NCBI GenBank assembly: GCA_944388565.1
Contig: CALXJG010000001.1
Coordinates: forward strand, 20,313-84,312
Direction of reading: 5' to 3'
DNA from: an uncultured Clostridia bacterium
Lineage (GTDB): Bacteria; Bacillota; Clostridia; TANB77; CAG-465
DNA length: 64,000 nucleotides
Shown here: positions 7,770 through 59,901 of the stretch, one piece after another
Layout: each line of letters begins with the position of its first letter
Numbering within the stretch: position 1 is the first letter of the stretch
The notes under the pieces: generated by a model
Seen by the model: only the letters and a program-made list of their open reading frames with translations
What the model was told of the DNA's origin: nothing
Database searches by the model: none
Position numbers and translations under genes: made by a program

Positions 7770-9152
7770 ATGGAATTAAAGTATGAGAAGAAGGATATAT
7801 ATAGTACTTTAAATAAAAAAGAAATAGAACAAGTAGATGTATATTCAAAAGAGTATATGAAGTTTTTAAATTCTTCAAAAACAGAAAGACTTTGCGTTGA
7901 AAATGCAGTAGAGATATTAAATGAAAATGGATTTTCTGATATATCAAAAAAGAGAAGTCTAAAAGCAGGAGACAAAGTTTATTTAGTAAATAAACAAAAA
8001 TCAATATTTGCTGCTGTTATTGGTAAGAAAGACTTAATATATGGAACAAATATAATAGGTTCACATATTGATAGTCCAAGACTTGATTTAAAACCAATGC
8101 CTTTATATGAAAATCATGATGTTGCTGTATTAAAGACACAATATTATGGAGGTATAAAAAAATATCAATGGATGTCAATTCCACTAGCAATGTATGGAGT
8201 TGTATATAATGAGAAAGGTGAGAAAATAAAAATAGCTATAGGTGATACAAATGATGATACAACTTTTACAATAGCAGACCTATTGCCTCATCTTGCAAAA
8301 GATCAACTGAAAGCAAATGCTAATGAATTTATTGATCCTGAGAAAATGTCAGTTATTATTGGCAATATAAAAGATAAAGAGGCAAAAGATAGTAAAGTAA
8401 AAACTACAGTTTTAAAATTATTAAATGAAAAATACGGAATAAAAGAGATAGATTTTGCTAGAGCAGAAATAGAGTTTGTACCAGCGTTTGATGCAAAATT
8501 TGTTGGAATAGATAGAAGTATGATAGGTGGTTATGGACAGGATGATAGAGTTTGCTCATATGCAAATTTAAGAGCTATAGTTGATTTAGTTAAAGAAAAT
8601 CATACATTTGATAAAACTGTAATTTCACTAATAGTTGATAAAGAAGAAATAGGAAGTACAGGAAATACATCAATGACTTCACAAGTTTTTGATATGTTTA
8701 TAAATATGTTGTTACAAAAAACAGGAAGTAAAGCAGATAGATTAAATGTATATTATAATTCTAAAATGTTATCTGCTGATGTTGCAACAGCTGTAGATCC
8801 AGTTTATGATGATGTTTCAGATATACAAAATAGTAATATACTAGGTTCTGGTATTGCACTTGAAAAATATAGTGGAAGTGGCGGAAAATATAGTTCAAGT
8901 GATGCTAATGCAGAATTTATGTCTGAAGTTATGAAAATATTTAATGATAATAAAGTTATGTATCAAATAGGAACTCTTGGTAAGATAGGAAAAGGTGGAG
9001 GAGGAACTATTGCATATATACTAGCAGATAAAGGTGTAGATGTGGTAGATTGTGGTACAGCAGTACTAGCAATGCATTCACCATATGAGGTTTCTTCAAA
9101 GTTTGATGTATATATGACATATCTTGCTTATAAAGCATTTTTTAAATCATAG
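7770..9152 (+). CDS. M18 family aminopeptidase (aminopeptidase 1-like)
   Basis: GSHIDSPRLDLKP motif, size 460 aa, DGGGGT region typical of M18/M42 zinc aminopeptidases. Confidence 0.7.
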   Translation: MELKYEKKDIYSTLNKKEIEQVDVYSKEYMKFLNSSKTERLCVENAVEILNENGFSDISKKRSLKAGDKVYLVNKQKSIFAAVIGKKDLIYGTNIIGSHIDSPRLDLKPMPLYENHDVAVLKTQYYGGIKKYQWMSIPLAMYGVVYNEKGEKIKIAIGDTNDDTTFTIADLLPHLAKDQLKANANEFIDPEKMSVIIGNIKDKEAKDSKVKTTVLKLLNEKYGIKEIDFARAEIEFVPAFDAKFVGIDRSMIGGYGQDDRVCSYANLRAIVDLVKENHTFDKTVISLIVDKEEIGSTGNTSMTSQVFDMFINMLLQKTGSKADRLNVYYNSKMLSADVATAVDPVYDDVSDIQNSNILGSGIALEKYSGSGGKYSSSDANAEFMSEVMKIFNDNKVMYQIGTLGKIGKGGGGTIAYILADKGVDVVDCGTAVLAMHSPYEVSSKFDVYMTYLAYKAFFKS

Positions 9153-9275: not shown

Positions 9276-10394
9276 TTGTTTAAAACATTATTAAAAAATA
9301 CTGATTATATTATACTTATATGTGTACTAATTCTGTTTGCTATAGGAGTAGTTGCAATATTTTCTGCTGGTTATAACACAGAGGTTAATAAAGATGAGTA
9401 TATAAAACAATTAATATGGTTTGGTGCTTCTATAATTGTAATGATTATAATTTGGATGCTAGACTATAATATGTTTGACATAGGTGGGTATATTATTTAT
9501 GGTGTAAGTTTAGTCTTGCTTGTTGCAGTTTTATTTACTTCGGGACTTATGGGTGCTAAGAGCTGGTTTAACTTAGGAGGCTTTTTGTACCAACCTTCTG
9601 AGCTTATGAAAATAGGTGTAATACTATGCAGTGCTAAAGCTTTTTCAATATACAAGAATAATATATCACAAACAAATAAAAAGAAAAAAATAATAATAAT
9701 TGCAATAATTGTACTTCTATTTGCAATACCTGTAATTCTTATATTATTACAACCAGACTTTGGTACAGCAATGGCATTCTTCTTTATTTGTGCATTTATG
9801 TTATTTAAAAGTGGAATTAAGTATAGATATATATTTGCTGGTGTTTTGTTAATAATTATAATGATACCGATTGTATATTTCTTTGTATTAAATCCTACAC
9901 AGCAACAAAGAATTAAGGTCTTCTTAAATCCAGAACTTGACCCTCTAGATAGTGGATATAACGCGATTCAATCTAAAATTGCAGTAGGTTCAGGTATGTT
10001 ATTTGGAACAGGACTATTAAAAGGAGCTCAAACACAATATGGTTATCTTCCAATAAAATCTTCTGACTTTATATTCTCGGTAATATCTGAAGAAATGGGA
10101 TTTATAGTTTCAGCTTTGCTAGTTATAATTTATTCTGTTTTACTTATTAGAATTATAGCTGTTTCAAAGAATGCAAGAGATGATTTCTCTAGCTTTATTG
10201 CAATTGGGGTTGCTGGAATGTTCTTTTTCCATTTTGTACAAAATATTGGTATGACAATTGGACTTTTACCAATAACCGGTGTACCTTTACCTTTTGTAAG
10301 TTATGGTGGAAGTAGTATGTTAACTAATGTAATAGCAATAGCTATTGTATTAAATATATCAGCAAGAAAATCACAAAATATGTTTTTAGATTAA
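9276..10394 (+). CDS. FtsW/RodA/SpoVE (SEDS) family cell-cycle protein, RodA-like
   Basis: 10 predicted TM segments, conserved SEDS regions (PDFGTAM, GLLPITGVPLPFVSYGGSS); TTG start after AGGTGA RBS. Confidence 0.8.
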   Translation: MFKTLLKNTDYIILICVLILFAIGVVAIFSAGYNTEVNKDEYIKQLIWFGASIIVMIIIWMLDYNMFDIGGYIIYGVSLVLLVAVLFTSGLMGAKSWFNLGGFLYQPSELMKIGVILCSAKAFSIYKNNISQTNKKKKIIIIAIIVLLFAIPVILILLQPDFGTAMAFFFICAFMLFKSGIKYRYIFAGVLLIIIMIPIVYFFVLNPTQQQRIKVFLNPELDPLDSGYNAIQSKIAVGSGMLFGTGLLKGAQTQYGYLPIKSSDFIFSVISEEMGFIVSALLVIIYSVLLIRIIAVSKNARDDFSSFIAIGVAGMFFFHFVQNIGMTIGLLPITGVPLPFVSYGGSSMLTNVIAIAIVLNISARKSQNMFLD

Positions 10395-42582: not shown

Positions 42583-44055
42583 ATGAAAATTGGTTTTGAT
42601 AACGAAAAATATTTAGATGTACAAAGTAAAAAAATAAGAGAAAGAATCGAAATGTTTGATAGCAAACTTTATCTTGAATTTGGAGGAAAATTGTTTGATG
42701 ATTATCATGCAAGTAGAGTATTACCAGGTTTTAAGCCAAATGCAAAGATTGAAATATTAAGACAATTTAAAGATGATGCAGAGGTTATATTTTGTATAAA
42801 TGCAAGAGATATTGAAAAGAAAAAAATAAGGGCAGACTACGGTATAACTTATGATAGAGATTTAATAAGATTAATAAAAGAATTAAGAAAACTTAAAATA
42901 TTTGTAAGTAGTGTAGTAATAACATTATATACTGGACAAGCAAGTGTAGAAAAATTTAGAGAAGAGCTTGAGGAGATGAAAATAAATACATATATACATA
43001 CTCCTACAAAAGGATATCCAACAGAAATTGATACTATAGTTAGTGATGAAGGTTATGGAAAAAATGAGTATATAAAAACTACTAGAAAACTTGTTGTAGT
43101 AACTGCTCCTGGCCCAAATAGCGGTAAACTTGCTACTTGTTTATCACAACTTTATCATGAATATAAAAGGGGAATAAAGGCAGGTTATGCAAAATTTGAA
43201 ACATTTCCAGTTTGGAATTTATCACTTCGTCACCCAGTAAATGTTGCATACGAAGCTGCTACTTGTGATTTAAAAGATGTTAATATGATTGATTCATTTC
43301 ATTTAGATGCATATGGAATTAGTGCGGTAAATTATAACAGAGATATTTCGACTTTTCCAATTTTAAAGAATATTTTATTTAAAATAACTGGAGAAGATAT
43401 ATATAAATCACCTACAGATATGGGAGTAAATATGGTAAAAGATTGTATTATAGATGATGAAGTAGTAAAAAAAGCTGCTTGTGATGAAATTATAAGAAGA
43501 TATTATGCTGCATTATGTGATTACAAACAAGAAAAAGTAGATGAGGATGCTCCAAAGTCTATCAAAGTTTTAATGAATGAATTAAATCTTTCAATTGAAG
43601 ATAGAGACGTTGTTGCTCCTGCTTTACAAAAAGCAGAACTTGAAGATAAGGATGTAATTTCTTTAAAATTACCAAATGGAAAAATTATTACAGGCAAAAA
43701 AACGGATATATTAAGTCCTGCTAGTTCTTTGATAATTAATGCAATAAAAGAGTTAACTAAGATACCAGATGAAATGTTTTTATTATCACCAAGTGTACTT
43801 GATCCTATACTAAAATTAAAAGAAAAAACAATATATAAAAAACAAACTTGTCTAAATTTACAAGAAGTTTTAATTGCTCTTAGTATATGTTCTGTTACAA
43901 ATTCCATAATTGTAAAAGCACTAAATAATATAGATAAATTAAAAGGATGTGAAGCACATTCTACTTGTATGTTAAAGGAAGATGAATTAAGGATATTTAA
44001 GAATCTTAAAATTAATTTAACATGTGAACCAATTTTTCCAAATGAATTAAATTAA
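42583..44055 (+). CDS. DUF1846/UPF0371 family protein
   Basis: size 490 aa, N-terminal GFDNEKYL...YHASRVLPG typical of UPF0371. Confidence 0.55.
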   Translation: MKIGFDNEKYLDVQSKKIRERIEMFDSKLYLEFGGKLFDDYHASRVLPGFKPNAKIEILRQFKDDAEVIFCINARDIEKKKIRADYGITYDRDLIRLIKELRKLKIFVSSVVITLYTGQASVEKFREELEEMKINTYIHTPTKGYPTEIDTIVSDEGYGKNEYIKTTRKLVVVTAPGPNSGKLATCLSQLYHEYKRGIKAGYAKFETFPVWNLSLRHPVNVAYEAATCDLKDVNMIDSFHLDAYGISAVNYNRDISTFPILKNILFKITGEDIYKSPTDMGVNMVKDCIIDDEVVKKAACDEIIRRYYAALCDYKQEKVDEDAPKSIKVLMNELNLSIEDRDVVAPALQKAELEDKDVISLKLPNGKIITGKKTDILSPASSLIINAIKELTKIPDEMFLLSPSVLDPILKLKEKTIYKKQTCLNLQEVLIALSICSVTNSIIVKALNNIDKLKGCEAHSTCMLKEDELRIFKNLKINLTCEPIFPNELN

Positions 44056-44128
44056 ATTGTTTTAAATAGACTTTACTTTATTTTATTTTCATGCTATTAT
44101 ATATATTATAGTAAGGGGATTGATATAA

Positions 44129-45160
44129 ATGGGAAGATATGAAGATATTATAAAAGATATAAATATATTACTTGCTGATGATGATGAAGATTATATGATG
44201 ATGACTTATTCCTTTTTAAAGCAATTAGGATATAATGTAGATAAAGCTTATGATGGTAAAACAGCTTTAGAAATGTTACAAACAAATAAATATCAAATAA
44301 CTTTATTAGACTATTTTATGCCAGAATTAAATGGTGAAGAAGTTATAAATAAAATAAGAGAGACTAATAAAGAGATAATTATAATATTGCAGACTGGATT
44401 TTCTGGACAAAAGCCACCAATTGAAACAATGAAAAAACTAAATATTCAAAATTATCATGATAAAACAGAAGGTATTGATAGATTAAATTTAGAGCTTATA
44501 TCTGCTGTTAAAATATTTAATCAACAAAGTGAAATAGAATTAACTAAATATAAAACAAGAGCAATTGGTGAACTTATATTTGGAGTTGCACAGGAAATAA
44601 AGTCAAATCTTCTTTCTGTTGGTGCAAGTCTTGAATATACAAATATGTTAATACAACAAAAAAATGAGACTTTTAGCAAAGACCATTTAGAAAAATTAAA
44701 TAAATATTATACTGGAAATAAAGAATCATTACAAAGGGTTGATAAGGTTTTATCTTCAATAATAAATCAGTCTACTGAAAATACTGATTATATTATGGAT
44801 GATAAAGATGTTATGGATATAATATCGCTAGTATTAAAAAATCAATCAAGAACTAGTGGAATAAATTTAAATACTAAAATTTCTTTAAAAGCTGCAAGTT
44901 ATATAAAAGGTGGAATAAATGATGCAATATTTATAATCTGCGAGATTATAAAAGAATTGATGGAGTTAGAAGAAAAAGGAAAAAGTATTGATTTAGTATT
45001 AACTGAAGATGAAAGTTTTTGGTATTTTAATATAAGCAGTGATAAGGTAAATAGTTTACCACCTTCACAATATTATATATTAAATAAGGTAGTAATATCT
45101 ATGCCTGGAACTAATATATATAAAGATGAAAATAAAATAGTTTTATCAATAAATAAATAA
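44129..45160 (+). CDS. response-regulator receiver domain protein with uncharacterised C-terminal domain
   Basis: ILLADDDEDYMMMTYSFLKQLGYNV...LLDYFMPELNG REC motifs. Confidence 0.65.
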   Translation: MGRYEDIIKDINILLADDDEDYMMMTYSFLKQLGYNVDKAYDGKTALEMLQTNKYQITLLDYFMPELNGEEVINKIRETNKEIIIILQTGFSGQKPPIETMKKLNIQNYHDKTEGIDRLNLELISAVKIFNQQSEIELTKYKTRAIGELIFGVAQEIKSNLLSVGASLEYTNMLIQQKNETFSKDHLEKLNKYYTGNKESLQRVDKVLSSIINQSTENTDYIMDDKDVMDIISLVLKNQSRTSGINLNTKISLKAASYIKGGINDAIFIICEIIKELMELEEKGKSIDLVLTEDESFWYFNISSDKVNSLPPSQYYILNKVVISMPGTNIYKDENKIVLSINK

Positions 45161-45223
45161 CTTGCAAATAAAAATAATTTGTAATATAATATAAATGTAT
45201 AAAACAAAAGAAAAGGTGAAATT

Positions 45224-45277
45224 ATGGTAACAAAAGGACGTACAAACAGCATCGAACTACACACACACACACACAAG
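45224..45277 (+). other. micro-ORF MVTKGRTNSIELHTHTHK (17 aa) whose 3' half is an (AC)7 repeat in the loop of a hairpin
   Basis: AGGTGA RBS 45210-45215, ATG 45224; hairpin gaactac-(ac)7a-gtagttc. Confidence 0.3.
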
Positions 45278-45426
45278 TAGTTCTTTATTAAAAAATGAAA
45301 AAATAGAAGAGGTAAAAATTGTAAAAAAAGAAAAATATATAGAGAAGCTAGTTTAAAATAGAAATATTTTAAGCTGGCTTTTTGTACGTAAAAAACCATA
45401 ATGAACCAAAAGAAGGAGGAAAAAAA

Positions 45427-46287
45427 GTGAAAGAAAAGAAAGGAATAAGTCTAATAACATTAGTAATAACAATAATAGTAATAATAATCCTTGCAGCAGC
45501 AGTAATATTAACATTAAATAACAATAACCCAATAGAAAATGCAAAAGAAGCAACATTTAAATCAGATGTAAAAACATTACAATCAGAATTAACAATGTAT
45601 ATAGCAAAACAAACAGCAGATACATTAGGAGGATTTAAAGCAGAAGAATTAAACTTAAGTGAAACAACAACCCCAAAGATAGAAGAAATATTAACAAGTA
45701 TAAAAAGTAGTGGATTAGAAGGTAAAGTAGAAGTACAAAATGGAAAGTTAGTATATACAGGAACAATAGAAAAAGAAGAAAAATGGTTTAAAGAGATAAT
45801 GGGAGAAAGTGTAGTGACACCACCAGAAGAGGAAGATAAAATACCAATAGATAAAGAAACAGAAAAAATAGGATATTATGCAGATGTAGATGGAAATGGA
45901 ACCGTAGATGGAGTAATATATGCAGATTTAGCTTTTTCTAAAAGTGGGCAATGGACTAATGCAAATGGAGCATATTCTTACACAGCAAAAACAAATACAA
46001 AAGATTATTATATAAGTCAAACAAATTATAAAGGAGATTTTGGAACAAAAGATGTATTAACAGCAATAGATGGAGATGGAGAAGATAGATTTTATGTAAT
46101 GGCATTAAAATCATTTAATGATGGAAATGGATTAGAGTATTTTTGGTATGAAGATGCACATGGAAATATGAGTGATTATGCAACAGCGACTTCGATAGAC
46201 TTTGGAACTGGAAGAAGAAATACAGAGACAATGGTGAAAAAGTGGAATAATAGCGCATATGGTGCGCAAAATGCTGGTAAACGGTGA
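45427..46287 (+). CDS. pilin/pseudopilin-like protein with non-canonical class-III-like signal (MKEKKG/ISLITLVITIIVIIILAAAVI) and C-terminal DUF1566; reading frame broken (+1) near 46259-46287, continues 46259-46558
   Basis: GTG 45427 after AAGGAGG; hydrophobic N-terminal helix; frame-2 ORF 46259-46558 encodes GWFVPSRGEWGAF...YWSSSQYS...YVRLS DUF1566 signature. Confidence 0.55.
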   Translation: MKEKKGISLITLVITIIVIIILAAAVILTLNNNNPIENAKEATFKSDVKTLQSELTMYIAKQTADTLGGFKAEELNLSETTTPKIEEILTSIKSSGLEGKVEVQNGKLVYTGTIEKEEKWFKEIMGESVVTPPEEEDKIPIDKETEKIGYYADVDGNGTVDGVIYADLAFSKSGQWTNANGAYSYTAKTNTKDYYISQTNYKGDFGTKDVLTAIDGDGEDRFYVMALKSFNDGNGLEYFWYEDAHGNMSDYATATSIDFGTGRRNTETMVKKWNNSAYGAQNAGKR

Positions 46288-46558
46288 TATATATGACGCC
46301 TTAGATGTGTGGGGAGTAATCCAAAATAAAGTAGCAGAAGGTTGGTTTGTTCCATCAAGAGGTGAATGGGGAGCATTTGGAGATAATTTAAGAATAACAG
46401 AAAATAATTCATTACCCGGACTTACTTACAACTATTGGTCATCGTCTCAATATTCTGATGCTCTTGTGTGGTACATGAGGTCTAGTACTAGGGAGATGAG
46501 ATACTACGCAATAGGTACTAACGGCACATTTTATGTGCGTTTAAGTACAACTTTCTAA
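46259..46558 (+). pseudogene. DUF1566 C-terminal segment, out of frame (+1) relative to upstream pilin-like ORF
   Basis: DUF1566 hallmark W-VPS--EW.....YWSS.......W.........YVR..; lacks own RBS and N-terminal part of domain. Confidence 0.5.
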
Positions 46559-46582
46559 TTTTGTAAATATTTAAAAGTTAAG

Positions 46583-46612
46583 GAGTTAAAGTTTTTCTTT
46601 AACTCTTTTTTC
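46583..46612 (+). terminator. rho-independent terminator; also the likely target hairpin of the downstream group II intron
   Basis: gagttaaag-ttttt-ctttaactc + TTTTTT. Confidence 0.7.
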
Positions 46613-46613
46613 T

Positions 46614-48478
46614 GTATGATGGGCATGTCATAAATCTAGGGTGAAAGTCCCAAGAGACGTATTTGTCGCGAACTCAATAGCAACTTGCAAAGCATAAACC
46701 AGTAATGGAGTGTGAAAAGAAGCAATAGCGAAATCGTGGCTCTATGAATAAGAACTTGATATTAAGGCTTATTAGACGGATAAGTTGCCAGAATACAACG
46801 AAGTCCAAAAGACAAACGTAAATCTAATGAGTAAATCAAGAGAGTAAACGAGGAAAGAGTTATGGCTTATCCCATGAGGTCCTATAAACGAATCAGTAGT
46901 AACAACGAATTATAGGAAGTCAGCAGAGGTCATAGTAGGAACTATTATCCGAAGGACCGAACAATTTATAAGACTATGAAAATCTTGAAATCTCTTGCAA
47001 TTAATCAGAATAAATAAAGATGATAGGTTTAAGCGTATCTTAAATGGGTAATCCAAAAGATGGTATTGCAAGATAACGAAAAGAAAGGAAGTAGACAAGC
47101 TATGAAAGAAGATATTATTACAAAAATACTTGACCGAAACAATTTAAATGAGGCCTATAAAAATGTTAAAGCAAATAAAGGAGCAAGTGGAATTGACGAT
47201 TTATCAATTGAGGAAACAGCAGAATACATAAGACAAAATAAGGCTACCATTGTATGGCAATTGTATAATCGTAAATATCAACCACAGCCAGTGCGTAGAG
47301 TAGAAATACCAAAACCAAATGGTGGAATAAGGAAATTGGGTATACCAATAGTGCTAGACAGAATTATCCAGCAAGCAATGGTGCAAGTATTAGCTCCAAT
47401 GTTTGAACCATATTTTAGTGAATACAGTTATGGATTTAGACCAAAAAGAAGTTGTCAACAAGCTATAATTAAAGCACTAGAATACATGAACGACGGGTAT
47501 GAATGGATAGTAGACATTGACCTAGAGAAATTCTTTGATAATGTGCCACACGACAGATTATTAAGACTAGTAAGTGATGTAGTAAAAGATGGAAATGTAG
47601 TTTCATTGGTAAATAAATTTCTTAAAGCAGGAGTAATGATAAAAGGTAATTATGAAGAGACTACAATAGGAACACCACAAGGAGGACCTTTATCACCATT
47701 ACTATCAAATATTATGCTTAATTTACTAGATAAGGAATTAGAGGCAAGAAATTTACATTTTACAAGATATGCAGACGATACAATAATTTTAGTTAAAAGT
47801 GAAAAGGCAGCAAATAGAATAATGACATCAATAACAAAATTTATTGAAAATAAACTAAAACTAAAAGTTAATATAACAAAAACAAAAGTATGCACACCTT
47901 GGAATTTAAAATATCTAGGTTTTGGATTTTGCAAAATGAAGAAATGGGAATGTATACCCCATAAAGAAAGTAAAAAGAAATTTCAAAGAGCATTAAAACG
48001 ACTAACAAATAGAAGTAAAAATATGTCACTAGACAGAAGAATAGAACAATTAAATTGGACTATTAGAGGTTGGGTAAATTATTTTAGGATTGGAAAAATG
48101 AAGAAATTTCTAGAACGCACAGATGAACACTTACGTGCAAGAATTAGAGTAATTATTTGGAAACAGTGGAAAACACCAAAGACCCAAATAAAGAACCTAG
48201 TCAAATGTGGACTTTCACTAAATAATGCTAGAGGATTAGCCTATTGTAGAAGAGGATATACATTTGTAGCACATTCACAAATTTTGCAAACGGCTATTTC
48301 GAAAGAAAGACTACAAAAACCAAATAATAATCTAAAACGCAGAGGATTAGTCCTTGCTTTAGATTACTATCTAGCTTGAAATAAACTTATAAATTGAACC
48401 GCCCATTGCCGAACGGCACGATGTGGTGGTGTGAGAGGGGATGAAAATTTTATTTAATAAAATTTTCTACTCTACTCG
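46614..48478 (+). mobile_element. group II intron (bacterial class C-like, endonuclease-less IEP); boundaries approximate
   Basis: begins right after terminator T-run with gtatgatgggcatgtcataaatctAGGGTGaAAGTCccAAG (cf. Ll.LtrB 5' GTGCGCCCAGATAGGGTGTTAAGTCAAG); RT/maturase ORF in domain IV; candidate domain V 48399-48429 with CGC triad; perfect 11-bp hairpin 48443-48467. Confidence 0.75.
47102..48379 (+). CDS. group II intron reverse transcriptase/maturase (IEP), no HNH endonuclease domain
   Basis: RT motifs (GIDDLSIEE, PKPNGGIRKLGIP, FRPKRS, IVDIDLEKFFDN, GTPQGGPLSPLLSNI, YADD), domain X (RGWVNYFRIGKM); alternative ATG at 47060. Confidence 0.85.
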   Translation: MKEDIITKILDRNNLNEAYKNVKANKGASGIDDLSIEETAEYIRQNKATIVWQLYNRKYQPQPVRRVEIPKPNGGIRKLGIPIVLDRIIQQAMVQVLAPMFEPYFSEYSYGFRPKRSCQQAIIKALEYMNDGYEWIVDIDLEKFFDNVPHDRLLRLVSDVVKDGNVVSLVNKFLKAGVMIKGNYEETTIGTPQGGPLSPLLSNIMLNLLDKELEARNLHFTRYADDTIILVKSEKAANRIMTSITKFIENKLKLKVNITKTKVCTPWNLKYLGFGFCKMKKWECIPHKESKKKFQRALKRLTNRSKNMSLDRRIEQLNWTIRGWVNYFRIGKMKKFLERTDEHLRARIRVIIWKQWKTPKTQIKNLVKCGLSLNNARGLAYCRRGYTFVAHSQILQTAISKERLQKPNNNLKRRGLVLALDYYLA

Positions 48479-48539
48479 ATTAATAGTTGAAAAAAATTAT
48501 TACATACTATATAATAAAATATATAGATGTGGTGAGATT

Positions 48540-59446: not shown

Positions 59447-59469
59447 TAATTATAATGAGGGGGATAAAT

Positions 59470-59901
59470 ATGTTAAGTAACAAAAGAGGTATATCGTTAA
59501 TAGTACTTGCAATTACTATAGTAATAATTACTATTTTAGCTGTTGCAGTAATATTATCTTTTAACAGTAATAATCCTATAGATAATGCTTATGAGGCTAC
59601 TTTTAAATCTAATATAAGGAATATGTATGAAGAACTAAATGTATATTTTTCAGATTTGGATAATGAGTCTTATGGAGAATTTGATCCATCCAAATTTTCA
59701 GCAGATTTTTCTAGTGTGTCATATACTGGAAGAGGAGTTGAAATTGAAGAAAAAAACATAACAGAAATAATAACTGTATTAAATCAATTACCAGATTATA
59801 GAGATGCTGTTTTTATAATTAACGGAAAATTAACATTAGATTCAACTAGATTTTCTGAAGAACAAATGAACTGGGCAAGAGAAGTGTTAGAAAATAAATA
59901 A
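59470..59901 (+). CDS. pilin/pseudopilin-like protein, paralog of 45427 gene N-terminal domain (MLSNKRG/ISLIVLAITIVIITILAVAVI...NNPIDNAYEATFKS)
   Basis: GAGGGGGA RBS, ATG 59470; ~55-aa N-terminal region closely similar to 45427 product. Confidence 0.55.
   Translation: MLSNKRGISLIVLAITIVIITILAVAVILSFNSNNPIDNAYEATFKSNIRNMYEELNVYFSDLDNESYGEFDPSKFSADFSSVSYTGRGVEIEEKNITEIITVLNQLPDYRDAVFIINGKLTLDSTRFSEEQMNWAREVLENK

Follow-up and report, generated by a model that had tools for sequence, protein, structure and literature searches.

A pilin-like gene with a lectin-fold head is split by a +1 frame change in an uncultured gut Clostridia bacterium

Within a 64-kb stretch of contig CALXJG010000001.1 from an uncultured Clostridia bacterium (the window), two open reading frames (ORFs) on the forward strand, ORF1 (45427-46287) and ORF2 (46259-46558), are one gene split by a +1 frame change. 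The break is real and fixed in the sampled lineage, and the gene is probably a fixed pseudogene, an ordinary dead copy in a large, otherwise intact family. Judged by its relatives, that family is one of variable (target) proteins of diversity-generating retroelements (DGRs) in gut Clostridia/Bacillota. The frameshift itself carries little weight: it is a fixed mutation that inactivates one of the many copies of a surface-protein family. The (AC)n leader that precedes the gene is more interesting and may be a new type of phase-variation switch. In annotation terms, 45427-46558 should be entered as a single pseudogene rather than as two hypothetical genes.

One gene in two reading frames

ORF1 starts at a GTG codon preceded by the ribosome-binding site (RBS) AAGGAGG and encodes 286 aa. 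It opens with a pilin-like N-terminus (KKG followed by ISLITLVITIIVIIIL), continues through a helical stalk into a beta-rich middle domain, and breaks off ~35 residues into a lectin-fold domain. Its C-terminal stretch reads WNNSAYGAQNAGKR, and both its coordinates and its end in AYGAQNAGKR are confirmed as originally predicted. ORF2, in frame 2, encodes 99 aa that include VAEGWFVPSRGEWGAF, then YNYWSSSQYS, and finally YVRLSTTF before the stop; in the +1 frame it is read as NGDIYDALDVWGVIQNKVAEGWFVPSRGEWGAF before the same two blocks. On direct reading of the sequence, no Shine-Dalgarno (SD) motif comparable to that of ORF1 precedes ORF2, in agreement with the original prediction that this ORF has no RBS or credible start of its own.

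When the conceptual fusion of ORF1 and ORF2 was used as a query, 4064 homologues were retrieved, many of which span both ORFs in one frame. Both ORFs are spanned without a break by more than 40 homologues 313-426 aa in length, many of which cover 100% of the fusion. The intact relatives include P0002 (369 aa, 77% identity), P0003 (368 aa, 71%), and P0007/P0021 (316 aa, 50%). Alignments pass straight through the break, with a junction consensus of WNSSAYGAQNDNGTYLDMWGAIQDKVAEGWFVPSRGEW, and the homologue consensus over break and tail reads DFGTGKANTEAMIAKWNSSAYGAQNDNGTYLDMWGAIQDKVAEGWFVPSRGEWGAFGDNLGIT, followed by WSSSQ and VRLSATF. Since uninterrupted homologues align across both ORFs, with a continuity far beyond chance, ORF1 and ORF2 are one split gene. 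These alignments bear out two further points of the original prediction, namely that the frame-2 ORF continues the ORF1 protein and that the N-terminal part of the C-terminal domain (DFGTG..NTE.M..WN) sits in the ORF1 tail. The check for an uninterrupted orthologue was positive: all relatives are single ORFs, and none needs a shift.

The +1 frame is open only from 46238 onward, and the shift therefore lies between 46238 and 46287; the DNA across this zone (within 46240-46310) contains GGTAAACGGTGA. In DNA alignments with three intact relatives (L002, L021, and L017, which encode P0002, P0003, and P0021, respectively), the frameshift zone at 46273-46301 on the forward strand carries a net 13 extra bases. 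The three relatives share one loop length despite very different divergence, and across the family alignment loop length is variable. The family's conserved Asn-Gly (NGT or NGE) is found in frame 2 as AAC GGT, which the GCT GGT A of frame 1 immediately precedes. The frame-2 continuation (46280-46558, forward strand), the homologous part of ORF2, supplies the rest of the Lcl_C/DUF1566-like C-type-lectin-fold domain. In ORF1, the two final codons (AAA CGG) and the TGA stop at 46285-46287 are an out-of-frame reading. CGG is the only rare codon of ORF1 (10 of the 18,210 codons in window genes), which fits a tail read out of frame. Most simply, the lesion would consist of a lineage-specific longer loop of 12 bases (four codons) plus one extra A, placed at 46279-46281, beside AAC (46279-46282), the exact base being our inference; such an A would turn GGT-AAC-GGT-GAT into GGT-AAA-CGG-TGA. 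The predicted junction peptide of the conceptual +1 fusion is AQNAGKGDIYDALDVWGVIQNK or AQNAGNGDIYDALDVWGVIQNK. In an AlphaFold2 (AF2) model of the fusion, the break site is a loop with a dip in confidence (residues 281-290, predicted local distance difference test [pLDDT] 68) between helices 262-274 and 294-297.

We then asked how far the break is shared. The public collection lists the exact ORF2 protein in 44 index blocks; 22 contigs were read, and 12 loci, from human-gut metagenomes of different projects and assemblers (ENA, Logan), were aligned. Samples with the allele include ERZ24773307, ERZ1742811, SRR27114645, and ERR4096302. There is not a single indel difference within 46238-46287 among these 12 loci, 10 of which are 100% identical across 45745-46613. 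The same break is present in the diverged allele L015 (2.8% over 973 bases), where the frame-1 TGA is TGG and ORF1 runs three codons longer to the next TGA, and in L016, which has four substitutions in ORF2. All six members of the ORF1 cluster with 286-288 aa (P0001, P0121-P0123, P0125, and P0126) end in AGKR. The only full-length member of that cluster, P0124, equals P0002 in length (369 aa), and in its C-terminal region it is like the intact relatives and unlike the window gene. No intact allele above 77% identity was found among ~15 billion proteins, whether by the fused protein, its C-terminal 139 aa, or cluster membership, and a pattern scan of species-representative contigs gave one distant locus, L004, which is the contig of L017; at pattern level the organism is therefore missing from these representatives.

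The original prediction had offered a sequencing error as one of three explanations. This is excluded because 12 independent assemblies, including the diverged L015 and L016, carry an identical break. That the true gene is intact and the break a product of sequencing or assembly is in our estimate extremely improbable. The break does adjoin short A runs and an (AT)4 tract, and the gene's 5' third, being a multi-copy repeat, clearly confuses assemblers, the upstream contexts differing between contigs. However, the break lies ~500 bp 3' of this repeated module, and the same indel state recurs across different projects, assemblers, and runs, including in alleles with substitutions around the site. 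Moreover, gene callers have called ORF2 separately in 44 index blocks, and an intact version is missing from the protein collection.

Architecture and retroelement context of the family

When ORF1, ORF2, and the fusion were scanned against Pfam and NCBIfam, all matches were sub-threshold, and we relied instead on family-wide counts and on a fold search. PF07603 (Lcl_C, formerly DUF1566) scores 13.4 bits on ORF2 (E = 0.1, profile positions 71-115 only) against a cut-off of 34.9, and it has no match on the conceptual fusion. Weak Lcl_C matches are found in 15 of 41 family members, the best with E = 8.5e-4. The AF2 model of the fusion has a mean pLDDT of 80, rising to ~90 over residues 140-376. 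Its top Foldseek match in the PDB is 4EPS (prob 0.99, E 1.6e-3), a fimbrial protein of Bacteroides ovatus whose C-terminal domain is a DUF1566, followed by 8Q4E, the C-terminal domain of Legionella Lcl (prob 0.99, E 1e-2, target-normalised TM 0.49), and then by C-type lectins. The model thus assigns the C-terminal domain to the Lcl_C/DUF1566 C-type-lectin fold. The "clear DUF1566 signature" of the original prediction is right at the level of fold and of weak family-wide matches, but it is not clear at the level of sequence. The comparison with the C-terminal domain of Legionella pneumophila Lcl (PF07603, 8Q4E) runs the same way: the fold matches and weak hidden Markov model matches cover the C-terminal two-thirds of the profile, whereas the sequence similarity is marginal and a collagen-like region is lacking. 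The stop cuts ~90 of the ~125 residues off this domain.

At the other end, the protein begins with VKEKKG followed by ISLITLVITIIVIIILAAAVIL, a short basic leader ending in Gly and then a ~20-residue hydrophobic alpha-helix, which is pilin-like; AF2 places long N-terminal helices at 9-32 and 35-66. The family profile matches type IV pilins (geopilin 9EGP with E 4e-4, PilE1, and PilA) as well as 4EPS. On the window protein, TIGR01710 (GspG) is sub-threshold (E 0.004) and PF07963 (N_methyl) has no match, the latter being weakly detected in 25 of 41 relatives (best 19.3 bits against a cut-off of 21.2). At mature position +5, the window protein has Thr and the family consensus Ala in place of the canonical Glu. 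No prepilin peptidase or pilus assembly gene was seen among the 20 window ORFs scanned. The protein is like modular type IV pilins such as Streptococcus sanguinis PilB (PMC8179133) in its basic leader ending in Gly, its hydrophobic helix, and its appended functional (adhesive) module. It differs from them in its Thr/Ala at +5, its sub-threshold N_methyl matches, and the lack of pilus machinery in the annotated parts of the window. A link to the "conserved pilin" published for TANB77 (PMC11680825) is at most a possible lead.

The beta-rich middle domain starts with the motif YADVDGNGTVDGVIYADL (DxDxNGxxD; 45879-45935), which is near-invariant in the family and looks like a calcium-binding loop. 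Further along, a WWE domain (RNF146) was considered for 46087-46230 (fusion residues ~223-260) on account of a profile match with E ~2e-3 and the motif EYxWY...TS..F..GK.NTE; it has no fold-search support, is probably due to chance, and was rejected.

The link to DGRs comes from relatives. P0021, which is 50% identical over its full length and has the same architecture, is encoded in L017, a Bacillota metagenome-assembled genome, where a 153-aa ORF and the gene for an RVT_1 reverse transcriptase (RT) follow it directly. Its last ~43 codons form a variable region (8821-8948) that agrees with a template repeat (9657-9784) in 111 of 128 positions; where the two differ, the template has an adenine. 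This bona fide DGR cassette (L017 8001-11010) lies in a region bounded by integrase, Mob_Pre, and resolvase genes. A second such cassette (L003 6001-9800) contains the paralogue P0055, apparently from the window's own species. P0055 and the window gene are 97-98% identical over the N-terminal third, but P0055 has an FGE-sulfatase-like C-terminus with a weak PF03781 match. It is followed by bAvd and RVT_1 genes, and its variable repeat agrees with the template in 109 of 126 positions. The C-terminal ~45 residues of P0055 are hypervariable between samples.

In alignments, the window gene shares the variable-region scaffold WSSSQ...VRLSxTF with its homologues, including the template-paired region of P0021. 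The equivalent region in the window (LTYNYWSSSQ...YVRLSTTF, 46422-46555, forward strand) is depleted in adenine, with an A fraction of 0.27-0.30 compared to ~0.5 in the rest of the gene, which is consistent with past DGR mutagenesis. It is also static across samples, being identical in 10 of the 12 loci and showing 1-4 scattered changes in L015 and L016. Within the 64-kb window, we found no second copy of 46300-46600 that could be a template repeat. Tblastn queries with the RTs and accessory proteins encoded in L003 and L017 had no match there either, which leaves the window without a DGR RT or Avd; the sole RT in the window belongs to a group II intron. A DGR currently acting on the window copy was rejected on these grounds.

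DUF1566 is a documented DGR target domain (PMC4159848; "category d" in PMC5758913), for which 4EPS has been used as a structural proxy, and a GspG-type pilin domain is among the rare DGR target domains in one survey (PMC11661182). Compared to DGR targets with a lectin fold of the DUF1566/Fib_succ_major type ("category d"/CLec2; for example Legionella LdtA and human-microbiome DUF1566 targets modelled on 4EPS), the window protein has the same lectin-fold end block WSSSQ...VRLSxTF, a fold that matches 4EPS/Lcl_C, and a surface-anchored modular architecture. It differs in its frameshift, in the absence of a template repeat, RT, or Avd from the 64-kb window, and in a variable-region equivalent that is static across samples; in addition, its anchor is a pilin-like helix, not a lipoprotein signal, and its Pfam score is sub-threshold. 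The combination of domains was originally predicted to be unusual in Firmicutes. This did not hold, as there are thousands of relatives in gut Clostridia/Bacillota metagenomes, and they belong to a known class, the DGR variable proteins. The relatives make up a large family, unannotated by Pfam, of pilin-anchored, lectin-headed DGR targets in uncultured human-gut Clostridia, and the window copy suggests that such targets decay once uncoupled from their retroelement.

Pseudogene, truncated subunit, or recoding

The authentic pseudogene is the best fit of the three options that the original prediction had offered, and we regard it as the probable one. The intact protein would have consisted of a type-IV-pilin-like signal/anchor helix, a helical stalk, a beta-rich middle domain, and a C-terminal lectin-fold head of the Lcl_C/DUF1566 type. 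In this lineage, an indel within one of the lectin domain's surface loops has put the last ~92 codons in the +1 frame, including the whole ligand-binding/variable-region part. Translation would stop at the TGA at 46285-46287 and yield at most a 286-aa "headless" protein. The ORF2 product alone would be a cytoplasmic fragment unable to complement an exported ORF1 product: ORF2 cannot supply an extracellular head because it has no RBS and no export signal. The mutation is old enough for fixation in every sampled representative of the allele, and no cognate retroelement would be diversifying the window copy any longer. Loss of function is in this sense what we infer from the break.

Several observations weigh against a dead gene. 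ORF2 is open for 99 codons in all alleles, even though little time has elapsed. The promoter, RBS, and ORF1 are intact, and a truncated product may therefore still be made and used. The substitutions are too few to show relaxed constraint on ORF2 or to separate the hypotheses: between L015 and the window, the ratio of nonsynonymous to synonymous rates (dN/dS) is ~0.25 for ORF1 (7.5 nonsynonymous to 7.5 synonymous) and ~0.28-0.37 for ORF2 (3-4 to 3), while L016, which was chosen because its protein differs, has 4 nonsynonymous and 0 synonymous changes. AAA-CGG-TGA places a rare codon in the A site, a "hungry" type of context that can provoke +1 slippage, and a low level of full-length product is possible. 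Finally, the search for a template repeat covered the 64-kb window, and remote DGR targets are known (PMC5758913), so that a retroelement may act in trans where no RT is nearby.

The main rival of the pseudogene is a truncation that is itself functional, in which ORF1, with its pilin-like anchor, stalk, and middle domain, would be expressed as a headless surface or pilus subunit and ORF2 would be dead sequence. We consider this unlikely. It would account for the intact leader, promoter, strong RBS, and ORF1, and the ORF1 differences from L015 tend to be synonymous, with 6 synonymous against 3 nonsynonymous single-base changes and a dN/dS of ~0.25; a headless pilin-like paralogue (148 aa) is also present at 59455-59901. 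On the other hand, the stop falls inside the predicted lectin fold, and the ~35 of ~125 residues that are left would probably form an unfolded tail. The substitution counts are moreover tiny, and the ORF1 variation may come in part from paralogue recombination or chimeric assembly.

Less likely still, and in our view improbable, is recoding, in which ribosomes stalled on the rare CGG or on the stop would shift by +1 at GGT-AAA-CGG-TGA, in a programmed or leaky manner. Programmed +1 frameshifting is of known types, such as CUU-UGA-C in prfB and the hungry codons of Ty1/Ty3, and the window is like these in having a +1 change that adjoins a stop and a rare codon. The +1-frame codon GGT is common in contrast to CGG, AAA-CGG is kept in all alleles, and ORF2 is still open. 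Yet there is neither a slippery codon that could re-pair (AAA to AAC leaves a wobble mismatch) nor an in-register SD stimulator, and transcriptional slippage would need longer A runs than the 3-4 bases present here. In L015 the neighboring frame-1 stop TGA is TGG, so a stop-dependent signal is not conserved, and no homologue in the family requires a shift; the conservation of the site between samples is explained by near-clonal identity. The slippery programmed shift of the original prediction is therefore not supported.

Two further candidates were rejected. Slippage in the (AT)4 tract cannot serve as a reversible switch, as the frame-1 TGA lies at the start of the tract and gain or loss of AT cannot reopen the frame. 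Reassignment of UGA was discarded as well, TGA ending 6 of the 51 window ORFs and the genes being unbroken under table 11.

Leader, paralogues, and neighborhood

The split gene is preceded by an elaborate leader on the same strand. A sigma-70-like promoter, TTGCAA-17-TATAAT (45162-45190), matches at 10 of 12 positions, and paralogue copies are conserved from the -10 box onward, diverging upstream. A small leader ORF, MVTKGRTNSIELHTHTHK (45224-45280), includes an (AC)8 tract at 45259-45274. Between this ORF and the gene lies a 16-17 bp hairpin (AAGCTAGTTTAAAATA / TATTTTAAGCTGGCTT) followed by TTTTGT (45345-45386), which is terminator- or attenuator-like and invariant in all copies. The leader folds with -46.1 kcal/mol (z = -7.8). 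The same leader (45162-45426) is also found in L001-L003, L005, L007, L008, L019, L020, and L022-L029, and it precedes every pilin-like paralogue.

The tract varies in length, n being 5, 8, 9, 10, 11, 13, or 16 elsewhere; the window and L005 are identical over 1.46 kb except for the tract (8 vs. 10 units). The small ORF reaches the hairpin only if n is a multiple of 3, its stop then lying 3 nt before the hairpin (L007) or 17 nt inside it (L026). With other n, the stop is 53-70 nt upstream of the hairpin, and the window copy (n = 8) is in this short-ORF state. The arrangement suggests a leader-peptide attenuator that is possibly phase variable. More tentatively, slipped-strand mispairing in this attenuator could switch each surface protein ON or OFF independently, so that phase variation would be laid atop DGR hypermutation and the broken copy would be a silent member able to trade sequence with the expressed copies via their common head; we rate this fuller scheme as conceivable but rather doubtful.

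The first ~640 bp (promoter, leader, and N-terminal module) are ~96% identical in several paralogues with different heads. There are at least 5-6 paralogues in the same species, with heads that are DUF1566-like lectins, an FGE-sulfatase-like DGR target, or LRR-like by C-terminal sequence. L025 and L028 (658-672 aa) and L027 (454 aa) have the same leader and pilin head with other C-termini, one of them LRR-like from sequence alone and another ending like the P0055-type lectin head. L029 breaks off after 39 codons, and decay of family members is therefore not unique to the window copy. The short pilin-like paralogue at 59455-59901 (RGISLIVLAITIVIITIL), which is 37% identical to the first 125 residues of ORF1 and has no head domain, is flanked by an AI-2E transporter gene on one side and recD2 on the other.

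The window has a GC content of 27%. By AckA similarity, the organism is an uncultured human-gut Clostridia bacterium whose nearest named relatives are "Clostridia bacterium" metagenome-assembled genomes (85%) and Clostridium sp. CAG:921 (69%). The genes flanking the split gene are housekeeping genes, as seen in the ORFs scanned in the window. Across assemblies (L005-L008 compared to window 42583-45160), the frameshifted gene has four different upstream neighbors, namely DUF1846 with a response regulator (window), DUF881/DUF1290 of the dcw cluster, a class I tRNA synthetase of the IleS/ValS type, and SpoIIE, with constant downstream genes. Many contigs end within the 5' third of the gene. The differing upstream contexts are most likely short-read chimeras across the repeat, real recombination between paralogues being a less likely cause.

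Downstream, the gene ends in an intrinsic terminator at 46580-46608 on the forward strand (12 bp stem and a T run). A group II intron (46614-48479) follows directly after the terminator hairpin, with an RT/maturase ORF at 47060-48379 and Rfam D1-D4 matches at 46696-46957. The intron is present in the window, L011, and L014 and absent from the otherwise 99% identical L001, L005, L007, and L008. Its 3' end artificially extends the downstream Metallophos ORF from 265 to 298 aa.

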